A stretch of 64,000 nucleotides of DNA, from positions 48-64,047 of the forward strand of contig JAUIDY010000017.1 of the NCBI GenBank assembly GCA_030428385.1. The letters run 5' to 3'. The position numbers and the translations under genes were made by a program. The notes beneath the pieces are model-generated. The model was not told where the DNA came from. It saw only the letters and a list, made by a program, of their open reading frames with translations, and searched no databases. Below are positions 44,025 to 52,511 of the stretch, in pieces. The stretch is from Rhodothermia bacterium (GTDB lineage: Bacteria > Bacteroidota > Rhodothermia > Rhodothermales > JAAAOL01). Position 1 is the first letter of the stretch, and every line of letters begins with the position of its first letter.

Positions 44025-46226
44025 TCATCGGAGCACCACCATCTTGTTCATCAGCCTGCGTTCGCCCACCTGCAGGCGGTACATATAGAGTCCCGAAGGA
44101 AGGGTGGCGGCATCAAACGTGACCGTATGCATTCCTTCTGCCTGAACCTCATCTACGAGGACGGCTACTTTCTGCCCAATCATATTAAAGACCTCTAGCT
44201 GTACCCGTGTGGACGCGGGCAGGCGATACGGAATCTTCGTCTCTTGCTGAAACGGATTCGGATAGTTCTGACCCAAGGCAAAATCGCCCGCAAGGCCCTC
44301 GGGGAGGGCTTCCGTCGCAACGATTTGGCCCACCGGTGCTACGTATACCCGATATCCGTAGAGCGGATCAGCGATATCCACCGGGACCGTGATTGAGCCT
44401 TCCGCAACCTCGTAGGTGGTGAGGGACACGGTAACGGGGCCTGCCACGGGCGTGTCTTTGTTGGACCACGGCACATATTCCACCTGCACATCCACCTCGT
44501 CGCCAAAGCTGGCGGGGATGCCGCTGATCACTACATCCACATTGCCCATGTGGTCGCCTCCCAAACCGATGCTGGCATATGCTGCGTCCATATCCAGATT
44601 TGCAAAACCGTCGATGCCATCCCCACTTTCGCTCGGCGGTGTTACCCGCACCATGTCCCCGGTCATGTCGCCATACCACTTATAGAACCACCAGCCGCCG
44701 CCTCGCTCATTGCTCGCCGTCAGCAGACTCCCCAACCGGCCGGGCAAATTGACAAACCACCAGGAAATAGAAGCGCTGTGGACCAGCTTGCGCTCGAATT
44801 TAGCAATAAACGGAGCCGAAATGCCGGGCGCGCCTTCGTATTCACGCGTCGTGTGCGAGTACTCGTTGATGCTGATCTCGCGGGGTGCAATACCGAGACT
44901 GCTCTCCAGCGACCGGTAGCTGTCGATATTGCTGCTCACATTGTCCGAACCCCCGAGTTCATGCCACGAAATAATATCGGGCAGGCAGTCATTTTGGATA
45001 CAAAACGTCAGGAACTCCTCGATGCGCGAGCGGCTGTAAAACGAATCCGAGGGTCCAATAATAGCGGCTTCGGGGTCCAGCGAGCGGATCAGGTCACAGG
45101 TGGGCTTCCAAAGGGTGGAAAAGAACTCGCCGTTGGCCGTATCCCATGTGCCGTGCTGTTCGTTCCATATCTCATAGCCGTAGTAGTTATCGCGTCCAGA
45201 CGCAATCTTGTCATTGATGACGCCCGTAACCTGGGAGACCCAACTCGCCTCGCCGGGCCAGATATAGGGCCAATTAGGAGAAATATCCGCCAACCGGATC
45301 GCGACCTGGCCTGTCGTAGAAGCGAGCCGTGCTGAAACCGGGATGGCGGCGCCAAAGGGCTGTTGGTGTCCTGCTCCAGACAGGGCTGGCTGCACATACA
45401 CATAGGGTTTGAGGGGAGCGACCATCTCTTCCAGGTTGGCGGGCAAGGTTTCCGTGACGCCATACAGCGCACCAGAGGCTGCATGCGTAACGGGCCGCAG
45501 GATATCGGAAAGATCGACCCGCAGCGTGTTCTCAATGTCTGGAATTTCGAATACGCCGGGCTCCCCATTGTCCAGGTTCTCCACGGTGTAGAATGCATCC
45601 AGCGGCGCAAAGGCAAACTTGTCAATGTCGAGCCCATCCTCCCGCGCACCGATCTCGAAGACTTGCGTCAGCGCCCCCGCCGCGACGACGAACGGGTCTC
45701 CCGGCTCGCTTGTCACGTCGTAGCTCGTGAGCCGCAGCCACTTCCATACCTCACTGCCCAGCGTCCCCGCCGACTCCACGTAGGCACCAGCGTCTGCGTA
45801 GCCTACGCCTGCGAGGCCGTTGACCAGCGTCCAGGCATCAGGATTTGTTGGATCGTGCGCTTCCCCAAAGCCAATGCCGTAGAAAAAGCTGTCATCATCA
45901 AACGCACCGGGGCCAACACGCAGACGCACATAGAGCGCATAGGTACCCGCTTCAGGAAACGTAACCACGTAACTTGCGGTGCGCCCCGCGCCCGGAAACC
46001 CGGCGTCTCCCGTTGTCTCGTTAAAGTTGGTCGTGATGGAGATGTAGGAAGCAGAGTCTTCGCTGAGCGTGGCAAATTCACCACCGATGGTGCCCGACTC
46101 CGCCTCGACAAGCAGGGGCGGCGGCGCGGCATCTTGCGCCATCGATGGAATCGTGGTGGGCACCAGGACGAGGAGCCCGAAGAGGGTGGTCATTACCACC
46201 AACAGCGCGGGGAAGCGGGTATTCAT
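44025..46226 (-). CDS. Secreted putative glycoside hydrolase (clan GH-A-like core, family unassigned) with the same N-terminal 190-aa module as the GH10 enzyme and a T9SS C-terminal sorting domain
   Basis: Signal peptide MNTRFPALLVVMTTLFGLLVLVPTTIPSMAQ. Module LLVEAESGTIGGEF...YTVENLDNGEPG. Core contains YYGYEIWNEQHG (candidate acid/base) and EISINEYSH (candidate nucleophile) 99 aa apart. NYPNPFQQETKIPY...GLYMYRLQV...MVVLR. Confidence 0.6.
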   Translation of the reverse strand: MNTRFPALLVVMTTLFGLLVLVPTTIPSMAQDAAPPPLLVEAESGTIGGEFATLSEDSASYISITTNFNETTGDAGFPGAGRTASYVVTFPEAGTYALYVRLRVGPGAFDDDSFFYGIGFGEAHDPTNPDAWTLVNGLAGVGYADAGAYVESAGTLGSEVWKWLRLTSYDVTSEPGDPFVVAAGALTQVFEIGAREDGLDIDKFAFAPLDAFYTVENLDNGEPGVFEIPDIENTLRVDLSDILRPVTHAASGALYGVTETLPANLEEMVAPLKPYVYVQPALSGAGHQQPFGAAIPVSARLASTTGQVAIRLADISPNWPYIWPGEASWVSQVTGVINDKIASGRDNYYGYEIWNEQHGTWDTANGEFFSTLWKPTCDLIRSLDPEAAIIGPSDSFYSRSRIEEFLTFCIQNDCLPDIISWHELGGSDNVSSNIDSYRSLESSLGIAPREISINEYSHTTREYEGAPGISAPFIAKFERKLVHSASISWWFVNLPGRLGSLLTASNERGGGWWFYKWYGDMTGDMVRVTPPSESGDGIDGFANLDMDAAYASIGLGGDHMGNVDVVISGIPASFGDEVDVQVEYVPWSNKDTPVAGPVTVSLTTYEVAEGSITVPVDIADPLYGYRVYVAPVGQIVATEALPEGLAGDFALGQNYPNPFQQETKIPYRLPASTRVQLEVFNMIGQKVAVLVDEVQAEGMHTVTFDAATLPSGLYMYRLQVGERRLMNKMVVLR

Positions 46227-47243: not shown

Positions 47244-48335
47244 TCAAGGCATCGCAGAACGATACGCGGCCTTCAGCAGGCATTGAAAATGGTAGACGCC
47301 GGCCTCCTCTTGCACCGAGAACCGTCCCCGGTCGTAGGCGCGTGAGGTGAGGCCCTCCTGCACATGCTCGCAGATCTCGATGTCTTCCTGCTGCACCTTA
47401 TCGCTAAACGCAAGGTCTTCGGCGAGGCGCTGCTCGTCCGAGAGGTCGTCATAGTAATAGTCGAAATGCACGCGGCAGCGGTCGGCAGTGACGGGCTCGA
47501 CGATGTTGGTCTGGAGTCGCCCTGGCAGGATGTTGAGCATAATGTTGGGGAAGACGAAGTAATAATACGCTGCCTCGTTATCGCCACCGTAGTAGCCGTC
47601 GCCGGTGCCCCGGAAACCGCTGTGCTGGAGCGAGTGCCACCGAAACGTTTCGGTGGTGTAGCCACGCACGTCGAGCCGCTCGCACAGTTCGGGATGCACC
47701 AGCGGCAGGTGGTACCCTTCGAGGTAGTTATCCACGTACGCCTTCCAATTGCACGCCACGTCGTATGTCACCCGGCGGTAAAACCGGAGCGCCTCCAGCC
47801 GCCACGGCGCGATGCGCGCGGCAATGCCGTCCACCAGTTCATCCAGCGTCGGCTCCTCGGCGTCATCGAGGCGCACAAACACCAGCCCTTGCCACGTCGC
47901 CACGCGCAGCGGCACGAGGCCATAGTCGCGTTTGTCGAACAGTTCGGTGTATTTAAAGCGCGGCACGCCCCGCAGGCTGCCGTCGAGGCGATACGTCCAG
48001 CCGTGATACTGGCATTGCAACATGTTGACGTGCCCGCACGGGGCCGTCACCATCGGCCCGCCCCGGTGGCGGCACACGTTGTAGAACGCCCGCAGGTCGC
48101 CCGTTTTGTCGCGCACCACCACGACGGGGTTGCCTGCCACCTTCGCCGTCACATAATCGCCCGTCTTGGCAAGCTGCCCGACGTGCCCGACGAGTTGCCA
48201 CATCCGCCCGAACACGGCCTCTTGATCAAAGGCGTGATAGTCCGCATCGACATACCACCGCGACGGGATGGTTTCGGCACGCGGCAGCGGCGCAATGAGC
48301 AGGGCGTCATCGGTGAGAGTAACAGGTGGGGTCAT
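47244..48335 (-). CDS. Rieske [2Fe-2S] non-heme-iron oxygenase, alpha-subunit type (choline-monooxygenase-like family)
   Basis: Rieske CRHRGGPM...CQYHGWTY. Mononuclear-iron motif DNYLEGYHLPLVHPEL. No reductase or ferredoxin gene nearby. Confidence 0.85.
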   Translation of the reverse strand: MTPPVTLTDDALLIAPLPRAETIPSRWYVDADYHAFDQEAVFGRMWQLVGHVGQLAKTGDYVTAKVAGNPVVVVRDKTGDLRAFYNVCRHRGGPMVTAPCGHVNMLQCQYHGWTYRLDGSLRGVPRFKYTELFDKRDYGLVPLRVATWQGLVFVRLDDAEEPTLDELVDGIAARIAPWRLEALRFYRRVTYDVACNWKAYVDNYLEGYHLPLVHPELCERLDVRGYTTETFRWHSLQHSGFRGTGDGYYGGDNEAAYYYFVFPNIMLNILPGRLQTNIVEPVTADRCRVHFDYYYDDLSDEQRLAEDLAFSDKVQQEDIEICEHVQEGLTSRAYDRGRFSVQEEAGVYHFQCLLKAAYRSAMP

Positions 48336-48356
48336 GCGTTGATGAAGGATAAAACA

Positions 48357-49049
48357 TCAGTCGATATGAAGGTCATCGACAAGCCGCGCCTGGGGCATAA
48401 TCTCATGAATCGGAAGGCCGAGTTCATGCGCGATGATAAGCTGCACCCGTTCCCATACGGCATGACGCGACCACGTCGCAGGCGCGGCACCCAACACCTG
48501 ATGGTTTTCCACCAGAACCTGCTGGGCCAACGCACCCACGGTGAGGCCCGGCTCGAAGTAGACCAGCCATGGCTTGGAGAATACATAGATCAAATACGTG
48601 GTGCCCCATACGGCGGCTAAACCCAACAGGGCATCCGTGAGTGGGATCAGGTCATTGCATCCGCTCAAGATCAATGCCACGGTTCCAATCCAAAAGATCC
48701 ATGTCATCACCACACGCACCGTTTCGGGACGACTTGGCGGTGGAAAATCGAGACGGACGGAGGTTCGGAGGTGCTTCCAGTGCGCCTTGTGGTTGACAGG
48801 TGGGATGAGTTGATCCAGTGTGGTCTTCGGCGTGATGGCGTGGCGAGGAACGTTGCCCTGTTCCATGAGGGCACGACGCAGCCGGTAAAAAACATGTGCC
48901 GTGAGGCAAGCGGGCCACACCTTGCCGTTCACCTTTTGCATGATGAGCTGATGCAAATCGGTCACGGTGTAAAGCCCCGTGACATCTTCAGGTGTGATGG
49001 AAATGCCAAAGGTTTCCTCAACGCGATGGATTAGATCTTCCGCTTCCAT
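48357..49049 (-). CDS. Membrane protein with split ACP-like termini (apparent circularly permuted acyl carrier protein fold, no Ser)
   Basis: First ATG at 49049; the longest ORF starts at a TTG at 49061. The N-terminus MEAEDLIHRVEETFGISITPEDVTGLYTVTDLHQLI resembles ACP helices II-IV. Two TM helices (VVMTWIFWIGTVALILSGC, LLGLAAVWGTTYLIYVF). The C-terminus VWERVQLIIAHELGLPIHEIMPQARLVDDLHID resembles ACP helix I up to the residue before the Ser. Confidence 0.5.
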   Translation of the reverse strand: MEAEDLIHRVEETFGISITPEDVTGLYTVTDLHQLIMQKVNGKVWPACLTAHVFYRLRRALMEQGNVPRHAITPKTTLDQLIPPVNHKAHWKHLRTSVRLDFPPPSRPETVRVVMTWIFWIGTVALILSGCNDLIPLTDALLGLAAVWGTTYLIYVFSKPWLVYFEPGLTVGALAQQVLVENHQVLGAAPATWSRHAVWERVQLIIAHELGLPIHEIMPQARLVDDLHID

Positions 49050-49127
49050 GTCTTTAAACAACGATCTGGATTACGTGAAGCGAAAAAGTACACGCTCCAG
49101 TTCAAACAGACAACGCAAAAATACACG

Positions 49128-49934
49128 TTATCGATGCACTACCAACAGCCCCACCGTCAGGAGATCCACGGCGTGAACAACGCCCTGCTGCCGACGAAGC
49201 CGGTGCCACGCCCGCCGCATGCCAAACGACCATGCGATGTCGTCGAATACCAACACGGCGGTGTCAGCCAAATGAGGGCGCAGTTGCTCGGCATACCGCA
49301 GCGTGGCCTCGGGGTTGTGGTGCCCATCGATGAAGGCAAAATCGATGGCCGACCGCGACGCGAGCACATCGGGCAAGGTGTCATAAAAACGCCCCGTCAC
49401 GATTTCTACACGGGCGAGGCCGAGGTCGGCCAGATGACGTCGGGCGCGATCTGCCAGCGCCGCGCCGCCTTCGAGCGACACGAGGTGTCCGGCTCGGTTC
49501 TCCGCCAGCGCCGCCGCCTGATACGCCGCCGAAATGCCCAGGCACGTCCCCAGTTCGAGGCACTGTGTCGGCTGAAACCGCCGGATTAAATGATACAGCA
49601 GCACCGCTTCGTGCCGGGGCGCGCTGCCCCTGTTCACCGACGCCAGCGTCCGCGTGACCTGCTGTGCAGCGGTCGCTGCCTGCATCCGCCCCTGCGCTCC
49701 AAAATCGGTAAACGCCACTGCCTCTTTCGATTGCCCCAAGCCTTCGCGCAGGACTTCAATTCGTTCGCTCCATGCAGCCAATGGAGGCTCTGCCGGAAAC
49801 GCTATCATATCGGCTAGCGCCGCCGCCAGTTTCTGTGCCCCCTCGTCCTCGTCATGCCGCAGCCGCTGCGACGCCCACCGCGCCTGCCTTCGAAACACAA
49901 GGCGGTGAAAAAAAAGGGCCAGCGTGTGCAGCAT
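49128..49934 (-). CDS. Class I SAM-dependent methyltransferase (O-methyltransferase family 3 / Methyltransf_24-like)
   Basis: CLELGTCLGISAAY (SAM motif I), FAFIDGHHNPEATL and VLVFDDIAW. Confidence 0.8.
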   Translation of the reverse strand: MLHTLALFFHRLVFRRQARWASQRLRHDEDEGAQKLAAALADMIAFPAEPPLAAWSERIEVLREGLGQSKEAVAFTDFGAQGRMQAATAAQQVTRTLASVNRGSAPRHEAVLLYHLIRRFQPTQCLELGTCLGISAAYQAAALAENRAGHLVSLEGGAALADRARRHLADLGLARVEIVTGRFYDTLPDVLASRSAIDFAFIDGHHNPEATLRYAEQLRPHLADTAVLVFDDIAWSFGMRRAWHRLRRQQGVVHAVDLLTVGLLVVHR

Positions 49935-50072: not shown

Positions 50073-50158
50073 ATGGTGGATGGGTACCGTTTTCGCAATC
50101 CTAAAACCCCTATTGTAACCTTTCTAAACGCCCGTGCGTTTTGCTCCTCGAATCGACG

Positions 50159-50749
50159 ATGCACGACGATGAACAACACCCAACACCCCGGCTTGTGAGC
50201 TTTTCCCTGGACCCTGCACAGCGCCGCTTCGAGCGGCTGGTGCATCAATACCAGCACCGTATCTACGGCTTTGCGCTGTATTTCCTGGGCCGCCAGATGC
50301 AGGCGGAGGACGTCACCCAGGAAGTGCTGCTGAAGCTGTGGGAACGGCTTGACCAGGTGGACGAGGAACGGCTCTTGGGGTGGTTGTTACGGGTGACGCG
50401 TAATGCGTGCGTGGACAAGGTGCGCAAGAACAAGTCGTACCGCAAGGTGGTGGCGCAAGCCCCGGAAGACGGCCTGAACGACGCCCTCGGCGACGACCCG
50501 ACGCCCGAAGCCGAAGCCGAAGCCGCCGACTTTCAGCAGCACCTGACCCGTGCGCTGACACGGCTCGCCGAGCCATACCGCAGCATCGTCATCCTTCGCG
50601 AAGTCCAAGACATGAAATACGAAGAGATCAGCGGGGCGATGGACCTGCCGCTCAACACGGTGAAGGTGTACCTCCACCGCGCCCGCAAGATGCTTCGCTC
50701 TGCTTTACACGCTGAACTACACGGAGAACTAGACCGTGAACTCGCTTGA
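50159..50749 (+). CDS. RNA polymerase sigma-70 factor, ECF subfamily
   Basis: Region 2 YGFALYFLGRQMQAEDVTQEVLLKLWE...WLLRVTRNACVDKVRK. Region 4 YRSIVILREVQDMKYEEISGAMDLPLNTVKVYLHRARKML. ATG at 50159. Confidence 0.88.
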   Translation: MHDDEQHPTPRLVSFSLDPAQRRFERLVHQYQHRIYGFALYFLGRQMQAEDVTQEVLLKLWERLDQVDEERLLGWLLRVTRNACVDKVRKNKSYRKVVAQAPEDGLNDALGDDPTPEAEAEAADFQQHLTRALTRLAEPYRSIVILREVQDMKYEEISGAMDLPLNTVKVYLHRARKMLRSALHAELHGELDRELA

Positions 50750-50750
50750 C

Positions 50751-51308
50751 ATGAATACCCCGGCGTGGCCGAACAACAACGACTGGATGGACGACCGGCT
50801 GGAGGCGTACCTCGACGACGCCCTGCCTGCCGACGAACGCCGCGTCTTTGAACAACGGCTACAGGAAGAAGACGAATGGAGCAACGAGCTGGCGCTGGCG
50901 CGTCAGATCCAAGACGGGCTGCATACCTTGCCGTTCCCCTCGTGTCCCCCAGCGGTGACCCAGGCGGTGTTGGCCGAGGTACAGCACCGACGCCGGATGT
51001 CGTTTATGACCCGCGTGCGGGCTTGGCTCGATGCCCAGTTCCACAGTTTCTGGCAGCCTGCGCTCGCCATGAGTGTGCTCGTGCTGGTGGTGGGCTCCGC
51101 CGTGCTCTTTGGCCGTCCGCCCCAACAATCCAACAGCGCCGAGGTCGAGCAGGCGCTGGCCGAGGTACGCTGGACCCTGGCCCTCCTTACCGAGATGGGC
51201 CGCGAAACCGGCACCGCCGTGCGCAGCGATGTCATCGAAAAGCGCATTGTTACGCCCATGCAAGACGCGCTCGGGTTTGCCCCGCCGCGTGACACCGATA
51301 CCGACTAA
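50751..51308 (+). CDS. Putative anti-sigma factor (single-pass membrane protein)
   Basis: The ATG lies 2 nt after the sigma stop. N-terminal LEAYLDDALPADERRVFEQRLQEEDEW anti-sigma-like helix and one TM segment (PALAMSVLVLVVGSAVLF). Confidence 0.7.
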   Translation: MNTPAWPNNNDWMDDRLEAYLDDALPADERRVFEQRLQEEDEWSNELALARQIQDGLHTLPFPSCPPAVTQAVLAEVQHRRRMSFMTRVRAWLDAQFHSFWQPALAMSVLVLVVGSAVLFGRPPQQSNSAEVEQALAEVRWTLALLTEMGRETGTAVRSDVIEKRIVTPMQDALGFAPPRDTDTD

Positions 51309-51332
51309 AACCCTTTTAAGAGGCATAGACCG

Positions 51333-51884
51333 ATGATGAAACAACTCCTTTGCTGCCTGCTGCTGGCACTCGGCCTGACGGGTGCCGCCCACGCGCAACA
51401 AGACAACCTGAGCCGTGATCCGGGCTACGTGGATCTGCAAGCGATTGATGGCTGGTTTCCCCGCGAAGCCAAAATCGAAGTCAATATCAAGGGCGCCTTG
51501 CTCGAACTCGTCGCCGAGGCGTCGCGCTATGAAGATCCCGAACTGGCCAACCTGCTGCGCAAGCTCAAGGCCATCCAGGTACGCGGCTATGAGGTGTCAC
51601 TAAACGACTTTCGCTCCGTAGAGGACCGGATGAGCACCCTCGCCCGCAGCCTCGAAAGCCAGGGATGGGATACCGTGGTCAAGGTCCGCGAAGACGATGA
51701 GCGGGTCAATATGTACACCCGCATTCAAAACGGGGTCATTGCCGGGATGATGGTGATGGTGCTTTCTGAAGACGACGAGAGCTACTTTGTCAATATTGTC
51801 GGCGAAATAAGCCCCGAACAGATTGGCCGCATCGGAAACCGGTTTGACATCGACCCGCTCCGTGGCACCGTGGACGGCTATTAA
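51333..51884 (+). CDS. DUF4252 domain protein
   Basis: Signal peptide. IEVNIKGALLELVAE...LRKLKAIQVRGYEV...VIAGMMVMVLSEDDESYFVNIVGEISPEQIGRIG pattern. ECF-operon context is typical for this family. Confidence 0.72.
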   Translation: MMKQLLCCLLLALGLTGAAHAQQDNLSRDPGYVDLQAIDGWFPREAKIEVNIKGALLELVAEASRYEDPELANLLRKLKAIQVRGYEVSLNDFRSVEDRMSTLARSLESQGWDTVVKVREDDERVNMYTRIQNGVIAGMMVMVLSEDDESYFVNIVGEISPEQIGRIGNRFDIDPLRGTVDGY

Positions 51885-51959
51885 TCGCCACCTGCCCCCT
51901 TTGACTTGTGACTTTCACCCACCCCCGCTTCGGCGCGGGCTGTTAAAACCCTTTGCGTG

Positions 51960-52511
51960 ATGCAACGTCTGCTTGCCCTCTGCCTCCTGGTAACCCTCGT
52001 GCTGCCCCTGTCGGGCTGCTTCTACTCCCGCGAAATCGCCAACACCCGCCGCGACATTGAGCGCCAGACCGGCGCTGAACTCGACCGCGAAATCGTCGTC
52101 AGCCTCGGCCCCGCCTCGCTCCGCACGGTCGGCTGGATTGCCGGGCTGGTGCCTGAAGAAGAGGCCCAGATGGCCCGCTCGTACCTCCGCGACATCCGCC
52201 GCGTGAAAGTGGGCGTGTATCAGGTGGAGTCGATGCCGCATTCGCTCGAAGCTGTCGAACTGCCCAAAGCCGCAAAACTAGAACGCCAGGGCTGGGACCT
52301 GCTCGCCAAGGTGTTCGAAGACGATGAAATGGTGTACGTGTACTACCGCGAGCGCAAAAACACCATCCGCGACCTGTACGTCATGGTCCTTTCGGATGAT
52401 GAACTGGTCATCGCCAAGGTGCGCGGCAACCTGAGCAACCTCGTCGCCCGCGCCATGCACGACCACGTCGACTGGACCGACTGGGACGACTTTGTCGAGG
52501 TTGATTTTTAG
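51960..52511 (+). CDS. DUF4252-like lipoprotein (second copy)
   Basis: ATG at 51960. Lipobox LPLSGC|F. IRRVKVGVYQVES...IRDLYVMVLSDDELVIAKVRGNLSNLV parallels the upstream paralogue. Confidence 0.6.
   Translation: MQRLLALCLLVTLVLPLSGCFYSREIANTRRDIERQTGAELDREIVVSLGPASLRTVGWIAGLVPEEEAQMARSYLRDIRRVKVGVYQVESMPHSLEAVELPKAAKLERQGWDLLAKVFEDDEMVYVYYRERKNTIRDLYVMVLSDDELVIAKVRGNLSNLVARAMHDHVDWTDWDDFVEVDF

Follow-up and report, generated by a model that had tools for sequence, protein, structure and literature searches.

A probable circularly permuted, serine-less acyl carrier protein fold in a membrane protein of a Rhodothermia bacterium and its widespread relatives

Within a 64,000-nucleotide stretch of a Rhodothermia bacterium genome (assembly GCA_030428385.1, contig JAUIDY010000017.1, positions 48 to 64,047; this whole stretch is called the window below, and coordinates follow its own numbering), an intact open reading frame (ORF) of 230 codons on the minus strand, running from an ATG to a TGA stop (48357..49049, stop at 48357-48359), encodes a protein that is almost certainly a circularly permuted acyl carrier protein (ACP). 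The function of ACPs, which are among the most studied small proteins, is defined by a phosphopantetheine arm carried on one serine. An earlier note on this DNA, made from the letters alone, had placed the ORF at this position and strand and described its product as a membrane protein with the two halves of an ACP in swapped order and the break at that serine; re-checking returned the same place and 230 residues from the ATG. We lean towards a broader reading, in which the window protein belongs, as a divergent member, to a large and uncharacterised family of bacterial proteins that have a circularly permuted ACP fold without the serine and would act by docking. The family numbers thousands of bacterial proteins in which the ACP fold and the acidic helix used for recognition are retained, with the chain cut at the serine and the serine removed.

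Compared with the NCBIfam models in its native order, the window protein gives two out-of-order stretches, residues 196-230 matching positions 3-37 of 79 in NF002148 and residues 5-39 matching positions 44-78 of 80 in NF002150, with all NCBIfam ACP models scoring far under their cut-offs. PF00550 (PP-binding) scores 19.6 bits in the same order, against a gathering score of 20.8, and covers profile positions 36-63 only. When the C-terminal 40 residues were placed before the N-terminal 45, the fragments became one contiguous match: PF00550 rose to 24.0 bits over positions 2-64 of 67, as the earlier note's proposal of a permuted PP-binding scan had anticipated, NF002148 matched at E=5e-13 over positions 3-77 of 79, and residues 10-83 of the construct aligned with residues 3-77 of the Aquifex aeolicus ACP 2ehs at E=3.7e-10 (phmmer, PDB sequences). 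The sole gap in this last alignment faces the phosphopantetheinylated serine ("hid.meaed" against "GADsLDVVE"), and no serine stands at the junction of the two halves. The swapped order and the break at the serine position are thereby both borne out, with helices running II-III-IV-(insert)-I, not I-II-III-IV. Judged on sequence, the resemblance to ACP is far beyond chance.

The N-terminal half of this permuted domain, hereafter the outer domain, comprises residues 1-44 (48918..49049, minus strand) and corresponds to ACP helices II, III and IV, with M1 at the position of ACP Leu37; it aligns with 2ehs residues 36-77, and AlphaFold2 places helices at 2-14, 20-23 and 29-42. The C-terminal half, residues 191-230 (48360..48479, minus strand), corresponds to helix I and loop I (2ehs residues 3-34) and ends DDLHID-stop, D230 occupying the position of ACP Asp35, the residue just ahead of the serine.

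When 1.84 billion representative proteins were searched exhaustively with phmmer and matches were counted as clusters at 50% identity, 2242 clusters reached E<=1e-3 and, of these, 730 reached E<=1e-10; nearly all are 225-245 residues long and align over their full length. The closest non-self match of the window protein is 33% identical (E=1.2e-32, residues 2-230), and a search with the family profile recovers the window protein at E=1.1e-63. Compared with 2ehs, the family profile matches at E=1e-24 in two stretches, profile 203-233 on ACP 4-34 and profile 3-43 on ACP 36-76, and so leaves out the serine alone. All of the best 60 profile matches in PDB sequences are ACPs, and the sole non-ACP match in the PDB sequence searches is an enoyl-CoA hydratase at E=0.13. 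A chance resemblance, or a decaying and rearranged acpP fragment, could be read from the sub-threshold native-order PF00550 score, and the ratio of non-synonymous to synonymous substitution rates (dN/dS) is uninformative here, with 4 synonymous and 5 non-synonymous differences, too few, from a strain with a 98% identical protein. The E-values of the re-permuted sequence, together with 2242 homologous clusters conserved over their full length and at their termini in at least seven phyla, already refute this explanation, to which we give practically no weight.

A typical family member starts MGLD.VELV..VEE.FGI.I.DEEA and ends EVW..L..II.EQLGV..E.V.PEARFVEDLG.D-stop, its N-terminus beginning at the serine position and its C-terminus stopping at the Asp before it. 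Among 266 members, 220 start with M-G-[LMIV], and in 15 others an MG[LMIV] motif lies internally, behind a longer called N-terminus that is probably a mis-called start; position 2 is Gly in 220, Ser in 3, Ala in 1 and Cys in 1. The C-terminus lies exactly three residues past the D-L pair (the Asp35 equivalent) in 213 of the 266, and the last residue is variable (D 49%, G 20%, S 8%). No serine is conserved, in that no alignment column exceeds 47% Ser. The acidic positions of helix II are conserved, with E11 at 99% and D or E at positions 2, 5 and 20; in terms of the ACP equivalents in helix II, E47 is 99% conserved, E41 is 91% Glu and D38 is 89% Asp, the equivalents of E47 and F50 standing at 98-99%. 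The permutation had been predicted to leave conserved terminal segments in homologues, and these segments are the best-conserved parts of the family.

A minority class B (P0002, the MCENLVPPDP... clade and the plasmid copies) has its break about 6 residues earlier than the majority class A: its C-terminus ends just past the "ARF" of loop I, its N-terminus holds the DLG.DS equivalent, and Pro, Ala or Asp stands at the serine position. Loss of the serine is thus universal in the family, but a chain end exactly at the serine position is not. One metagenomic relative of 411 residues, P0104, carries the whole long unit twice in tandem, the second copy being degenerate. The window protein itself is a divergent class A member. 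It starts MEAEDLI, without the Gly-Leu of the family, and is thus an outlier with respect to an M-G-[LM]-[DE] start; it is also off the consensus at nine highly conserved columns (E2, E4, D5, P20, V23, T30, H87, P105 and L223), among which the conserved R87 has become His and L105 has become Pro.

Members of the family are labelled "acyl carrier protein" (JGI), "phosphopantetheine-binding protein" (NCBI), "Carrier domain-containing protein" (UniRef) or "hypothetical", and no Pfam, NCBIfam or PADLOC model describes the permuted ACP family. Searches of the full-text literature accessible without subscription turned up no account of a stand-alone ACP that is naturally permuted or lacks the serine. 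The fold is familiar; its architecture here is undescribed, widespread and systematically mis-annotated. The family resembles AcpP-type ACPs (PF00550; TIGR00517/NF002148) in that both halves are homologous in sequence, the acidic helix II is kept and the same core contacts are recovered by co-evolution (see below). It differs from them in its order, II-III-IV ... I as opposed to I-II-III-IV, with the chain ends at the Ser36 site; in having no conserved serine, so that there is no site for phosphopantetheine attachment; and, in the window protein, in nesting a second ACP-like repeat and a transmembrane (TM) hairpin. By sequence criteria, homology to AcpP-type ACPs is certain, but three of their defining features, the native-order profile match, the serine and the helix order, fail, and for this reason the window protein ought not to be classed functionally as an ACP. 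The labels "acyl carrier protein" and "phosphopantetheine-binding protein" are almost certainly wrong functionally, and they inflate ACP counts in genome-based metabolic and biosynthetic predictions.

The earlier note had also proposed that the termini reassemble into an ACP-like bundle. In a mean-field direct-coupling analysis of 294 full-length homologues (effective number of sequences, Neff, 268; sequence separation >=6), 24 of the top 80 couplings join residues 1-44 with residues 191-230, against 5.6 expected (hypergeometric P=5.5e-10), and they reach the extreme chain ends (E2-D230, A3-I229, M1-V224 and M1-D226), in agreement with that proposal. Mapped to AcpP through the 2ehs alignment, coupled pairs between the two halves include L46-V7, F50-I3, I72-V7 and V65-V22, the first three of which are core contacts of the AcpP bundle. 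An AlphaFold2 model of the window protein, built from a 113-sequence alignment, has a mean predicted local distance difference test score (pLDDT) of 92.6 and a predicted template modelling score (pTM) of 0.68; pLDDT is 89 for residues 1-10 and 95 for residues 221-230, and confidence dips only over residues 41-50, to 69. Compared with the PDB by Foldseek, the model finds ACPs as its only low-rmsd matches (49-57 columns, root-mean-square deviation (rmsd) 1.7-2.7 A).

Natural short relatives isolate the same domain. A search with one 86-residue member added 60 more clusters, mostly of 84-92 residues, and since these natural forms hold the permuted ACP alone, the permuted ACP is the core unit of the family. 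In the 86-88-residue class, helices II, III and IV are followed by a linker of about 10 residues and then by helix I and its loop. The 86-residue member P0268, modelled by AlphaFold2 with a 58-sequence alignment, reaches a pLDDT of 94.9 and a pTM of 0.84, with helices at 3-16, 22-27, 31-44 and 51-66. T30 and A78 are the sole beta-bridge residues in this model and therefore pair with each other, which places the C-terminal loop against the segment before helix IV. The top 50 Foldseek matches of P0268 in the PDB are all ACPs (36-42 aligned columns, rmsd 0.4-1.6 A), with 50-58% identity to E. coli AcpP over helices II-IV.

Taken together, the couplings, the pLDDT values and the bridge residues assigned by DSSP suggest that the outer domain closes within one chain. 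The bundle might instead form between chains, with the TM hairpins holding a domain-swapped dimer or oligomer together, an arrangement compatible with any function. Direct-coupling analysis is blind to the difference between intra-chain and inter-chain contacts, the pTM of 0.68 is under what the pLDDT would lead one to expect, and the tandem-duplicated P0104 could also be seen in this light. Single-chain closure is nonetheless favoured, because the monomer model is confident at both ends and the minimal forms, with 6-10 residues between helices IV and I, are predicted as closed monomers; the N- and C-termini of ACP lie close together, which makes such closure easy. We therefore consider an inter-chain bundle unlikely.

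A one-genome-per-species scan, with an MGLDTVEL start as its search pattern, found 165 relatives, of which the best 80 were kept. Most of these 80 come from Planctomycetota, the others from Acidobacteriota, Bacteroidota, Verrucomicrobiota, Pseudomonadota, Melainabacteria and Armatimonadota. Intact relatives in the scan end DLG.D; the MGLDTVEL start shared by all of them is the search pattern itself. Between the 86-88-residue class and a long class of 220-245 residues, which has an insert plus two TM helices, stand intermediate classes of 107, about 181 (with a soluble insert) and about 198 residues.

In the window protein, the insert of the long class had been described as a spacer of about 150 residues with two TM helices. 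The hairpin stands, and the view of the remainder as a plain linker does not, the spacer being a degenerate ACP-like repeat that carries the hairpin. Its consensus (C.T..FYRLRRAL...G..R..IRP.T.L..L.P...RR..W..L.....L.LP.L, then the TM hairpin, then TVG.L) resembles ACP helix I, loop, helix II and helix IV. With the hairpin removed, hhalign matched the insert to the re-permuted outer profile at 93% probability (E=3.1e-7, 73 columns) in canonical order, with a score of 38, compared with no more than 0.4% probability and a score of no more than 11 for reversed profiles and 20 column-shuffled controls. The insert alone has no match in Pfam, and its ACP ancestry is visible only by profile-profile comparison.

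In the window protein, residues 45-83 (48801..48917, minus strand) form a short linker, Cys48, the inner helix I' and loop I' (C.T..FYRLRRAL ... R..I.P.T.L..L.P). Residues 84-107 (48729..48800, minus strand) form the inner helix II' (RR..W..L ... L.LP.L), with Arg or His in the serine-equivalent region and an AlphaFold helix at 84-98. A TM hairpin takes the place of helix III' at residues 108-160 (48570..48728, minus strand), with TM1 at 113-131 (48657-48713) and TM2 at 140-158 (48576-48632). Residues 161-190 (48480..48569, minus strand) hold the inner helix IV', with its TVG.L motif, and the linker to the C-terminal half. In the hhalign comparison, LTVGALAQQVL of helix IV' pairs with YTVTDLHQLIM. 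The long-form insert residues C48, F54, Y55, R58, R69, P74, P83, W91 and P103 are all present in the window protein. Cys48 (48906-48908, minus strand), at the start of inner helix I', is 98% conserved in the 294 long-form homologues, alongside F54, R58, W91 and P103; in the AlphaFold model it closes the one linker of lower confidence, and the short forms have no equivalent Cys.

The inner pieces are coupled to one another (I72-V171, T50-Q176, P74-G172, L78-L174, K88-L162 and L100-L186, and also R107-S158). A contact from loop I to the segment before helix IV occurs in both domains, the outer V29-I217 and the inner I72-V171 being exact equivalents. Six isolated bridge residues in the AlphaFold model (T28, T77, S106, L162, T170 and A221) would, in light of the couplings, fit the pairs T28-A221, T77-T170 and S106-L162. 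The repeat match, the inner couplings and these bridge pairs make it probable that the architecture is nested, with an outer permuted ACP built from the two ends of the chain and an inner ACP' in canonical order that carries the hairpin. Two permuted units in tandem, (II-III-IV-I') followed by (II'-TM-TM-IV'-I), would suit a sequence that spans two ACP repeat lengths in a frame starting at the serine position, and the linker from helix IV to helix I' is short, as in the minimal forms. Couplings speak otherwise: the N-terminal half shares 2 of the top 80 with residues 45-83, which include helix I' (5.4 expected), as against the 24 it shares with the C-terminal half, and the couplings of helix I' run to helix IV' (12 of the top 120, 5.6 expected, P=0.01). 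Both outer pieces, moreover, are strongly canonical and both inner pieces degenerate, and the tandem arrangement is accordingly very unlikely.

A TM hairpin of two helices with both termini on one side of the membrane, as the earlier note had envisaged, agrees with hydropathy, the AlphaFold helices and the distribution of basic residues. Kyte-Doolittle values are 1.99 for residues 113-131 and 1.57 for residues 140-158, and the modelled helices span 109-131 and 137-157. The loop between TM1 and TM2 consists of 8 residues, NDLIPLTD, and is acidic, without Lys or Arg; across the family, mean K+R per 15 residues is 2.3 before TM1, 0.9 in the loop and 1.7 after TM2. By the positive-inside rule, both ACP-like domains and the termini should be cytoplasmic. 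Net charge is -8 for the outer domain (family mean -10) and +5 for the inner domain (family mean +7.4).

These features suggest how the nested protein may work. The N-terminal 44 and C-terminal 40 residues would pack on the cytoplasmic side as an acidic four-helix ACP-like bundle, with the chain ends where a canonical ACP holds its phosphopantetheinylated serine; a basic, degenerate second repeat would be nested between the halves, its TM hairpin anchoring the protein in the inner membrane. Because the acceptor serine is missing and the backbone is interrupted at the site, no phosphopantetheine arm could be attached, and ACP-like acyl shuttling would not be expected. The retained acidic "recognition" face of helix II could allow docking to proteins that normally recognise ACP, so that the protein would serve as a membrane-tethered ACP mimic, a decoy, scaffold or regulator that acts by docking and not by carrying. 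We put this mechanism forward tentatively. The preference for Gly at position 2 could be rationalised within it, since Gly would be the sole residue to combine Met removal, tolerance as a helix N-cap and resistance to phosphopantetheinylation. If the mechanism is correct, these ACP mimics would be a natural tool to regulate or hijack ACP-dependent enzymes. A related alternative is that they are ACP decoys, borne by mobile elements, that neutralise an enzyme or toxin that recognises ACP.

Several points weigh against the reading of the window protein as a docking member of this family. The Foldseek E-values are not significant, at 2-5 for the window protein and 0.3-2 for P0268, which has no match at E<=0.001; in both cases this is because a sequential aligner covers only half of a permuted domain. 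The couplings, as noted above, do not separate contacts within a chain from those between chains. The nine off-consensus columns and the missing N-terminal Gly-Leu mean that the function of the window protein may have drifted from that of its relatives, and the compact gene cluster in which it lies (described below) could mean a local pathway role. The docking mechanism itself is drawn from what the protein cannot do and from the surface features it retains, and a pure docking model leaves unexplained the preference for Gly2 and the 98% conserved Cys48.

These last two features would find a place if the family were cofactor-free carriers, with cargo held on the chain ends, at the Ser36 position atop helix II, or on Cys48. 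The attachment point could then be the alpha-amine of Gly after Met removal, the C-terminal carboxylate or the invariant Cys48, by a logic like that of LysW. Gly far outnumbers Ser, Ala and Cys at position 2; the chain ends co-evolve; and Cys48 lies at the N-terminus of helix I', beside the only flexible linker. Were this so, the permutation would exist to put a free chain terminus where ACP bears its cofactor arm, and cargo on the termini or on Cys48 would bring to the ACP fold a carrier chemistry that is new to it. The window protein, however, has no N-terminal Gly, class B breaks about 6 residues earlier and has Pro, Ala or Asp where the serine would be, the last residue varies, the short forms have no Cys, and no ligase or transferase is a conserved neighbour. 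We regard such a carrier role as improbable.

Known systems offer partial parallels. Chain termini serve as attachment points in the amino-group carrier LysW and in carriers of the ThiS/MoaD type; the likeness is one of concept only, a small acidic carrier with a terminal group in place of a cofactor. Their folds are unrelated, and they have invariant terminal residues and adjacent conserved partner enzymes, whereas in the permuted family the C-terminal residue varies and no neighbour is conserved. A working model for the docking reading is apo-ACP: unmodified ACP is reported to be toxic in E. coli, inhibiting ACP-dependent enzymes, and an ACP fold without its prosthetic group can still bind client enzymes and change how active they are. 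Apo-ACP, however, is transient and modifiable, whereas the permuted proteins would be permanently unmodifiable, are often membrane-anchored and are encoded by separate, often mobile genes. For the permutation itself, the textbook natural case in a small helical bundle is swaposin, the saposin-like domain of plant aspartic proteases, likewise a circularly permuted small all-helical domain, best accounted for by a duplication whose two ends were then trimmed. Its fold and biology are unrelated, and its break removes no cofactor attachment residue.

The gene lies among four co-directional minus-strand genes with gaps of 78, 21 and 15 nt. A Methyltransf_24 methyltransferase gene (49128..49934) lies 78 nt upstream, a Rieske/Ring_hydroxyl_A oxygenase gene (47244..48335) 21 nt downstream, and a PgeF gene 15 nt beyond the Rieske gene; the order is unchanged in the strain with the 98% identical protein. 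This spacing and its retention would suit a dedicated subunit of the methyltransferase/Rieske/PgeF cluster, for example a membrane dock for the oxygenase. The wider family tells otherwise. In the 80 genome loci, surveyed by ORF calling, all-against-all BLAST clustering and a Pfam scan of 61 likely operonic neighbours, no neighbour family occurred in more than 6 loci, the 61 neighbours held 92 different Pfam families, the commonest of which (PhyH) appeared 4 times, and neither Rieske nor Methyltransf_24 was among the 25 most frequent neighbour Pfam families listed. The conserved Rieske/methyltransferase neighbourhood that had been looked for in homologues is thus species-local, and because it is not kept in the family it says nothing about family function. 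The comparison of synteny passes straight from the strain to relatives no closer than 33% identical. We hold a dedicated role in the local cluster to be quite unlikely.

In three Isosphaeraceae (Planctomycetota) loci (L004, L006 and L007), a metallo-beta-lactamase-fold gene stands about 50 nt upstream of the family member, probably as lineage-specific synteny; this gene matches the Anti-Pycsar Apyc1 model at 53.7 bits, against a cut-off of 50.

Many relatives occur in mobile or accessory settings. Around the short forms of 86-88 residues (L087-L094), small unannotated ORFs line up in arrays on the same strand, and with them occur toxin-antitoxin modules (VapB, Gp49/HTH_37, BrnT/CopG), genes for a large serine recombinase and for a TIR-TPR protein, GNAT and NUDIX genes and, in L089 (2963-3310), a gene for a stand-alone 115-residue EF-Tu domain-3 protein; a scan of the neighbours of short forms found nothing conserved. 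These arrays have the look of accessory or mobile islands, in which mimics of host-factor domains may accumulate. Divergent long forms are also found on plasmids of Phaeobacter and of sphingomonads. The sphingomonad copy gives identical match statistics on at least 11 plasmids, where it has IS6100, IS256 and IS21 elements as neighbours and the traA relaxase gene about 2.3 kb away. Plasmid members include WP_007685994.1 of Sphingobium indicum UT26S pUT1 (L084, 4962-5654) and one on a Phaeobacter inhibens plasmid (L085, 4920-5627), and in the plasmid copies the permutation break is shifted into loop I. Niastella, Duganella and Singulisphaera also have a member of the family. A tblastn search of 50,697 phage records gave no match that would link the family to phages, and PADLOC gave none that would link it to defence. 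The pattern is that of an accessory gene that stands alone and is often mobile, and the missing conserved partner and the mobile settings suit a binder more than a subunit of a pathway.

Both ends of the window gene were considered in light of the permutation. A TTG at 49059-49061 (minus strand), four codons upstream of the ATG and itself preceded four codons earlier by a TAA, is an alternative start that would add MFKD. It is judged unlikely and was rejected on the alignments, the ATG being preferred because the C-terminus already covers ACP positions 33-36, which MFKD would repeat; public gene calls for this protein also begin at the ATG. At the other end, the TGA is in frame with the Rieske ATG 7 codons downstream (48333-48359, minus strand: TGA TGT TTT ATC CTT CAT CAA CGC ATG), and the spacing is unchanged in the strain with the 98% identical protein. 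Read-through into the Rieske gene was rejected because the intervening CFILHQR is not ACP-like, and the 213 of 266 family members that terminate at the same position oppose it further.

An inverted repeat, GTCGATGACCTTCATATCGAC then TGATGTTTTA (48360-48380, minus strand), overlaps the last seven codons and the stop, and has a terminator-like look between the permuted ACP gene and the Rieske gene; it is not significant, terminator-like sites being rarer in the region than in shuffled sequence (1 vs 4.3). The GC (guanine plus cytosine) content is 59.7%, which, with the T9SS-sorted protein described below, points to a host in the Bacteroidota or a related group. Divergently upstream of the methyltransferase gene, genes for an extracytoplasmic function (ECF) sigma factor, a putative anti-sigma protein and two DUF4252 proteins occupy 50141-52511 on the plus strand, a block also found in the related strain, and 44025-46226 on the minus strand encodes a 733-residue secreted protein with a type IX secretion system (T9SS) type A sorting domain at its C-terminus.

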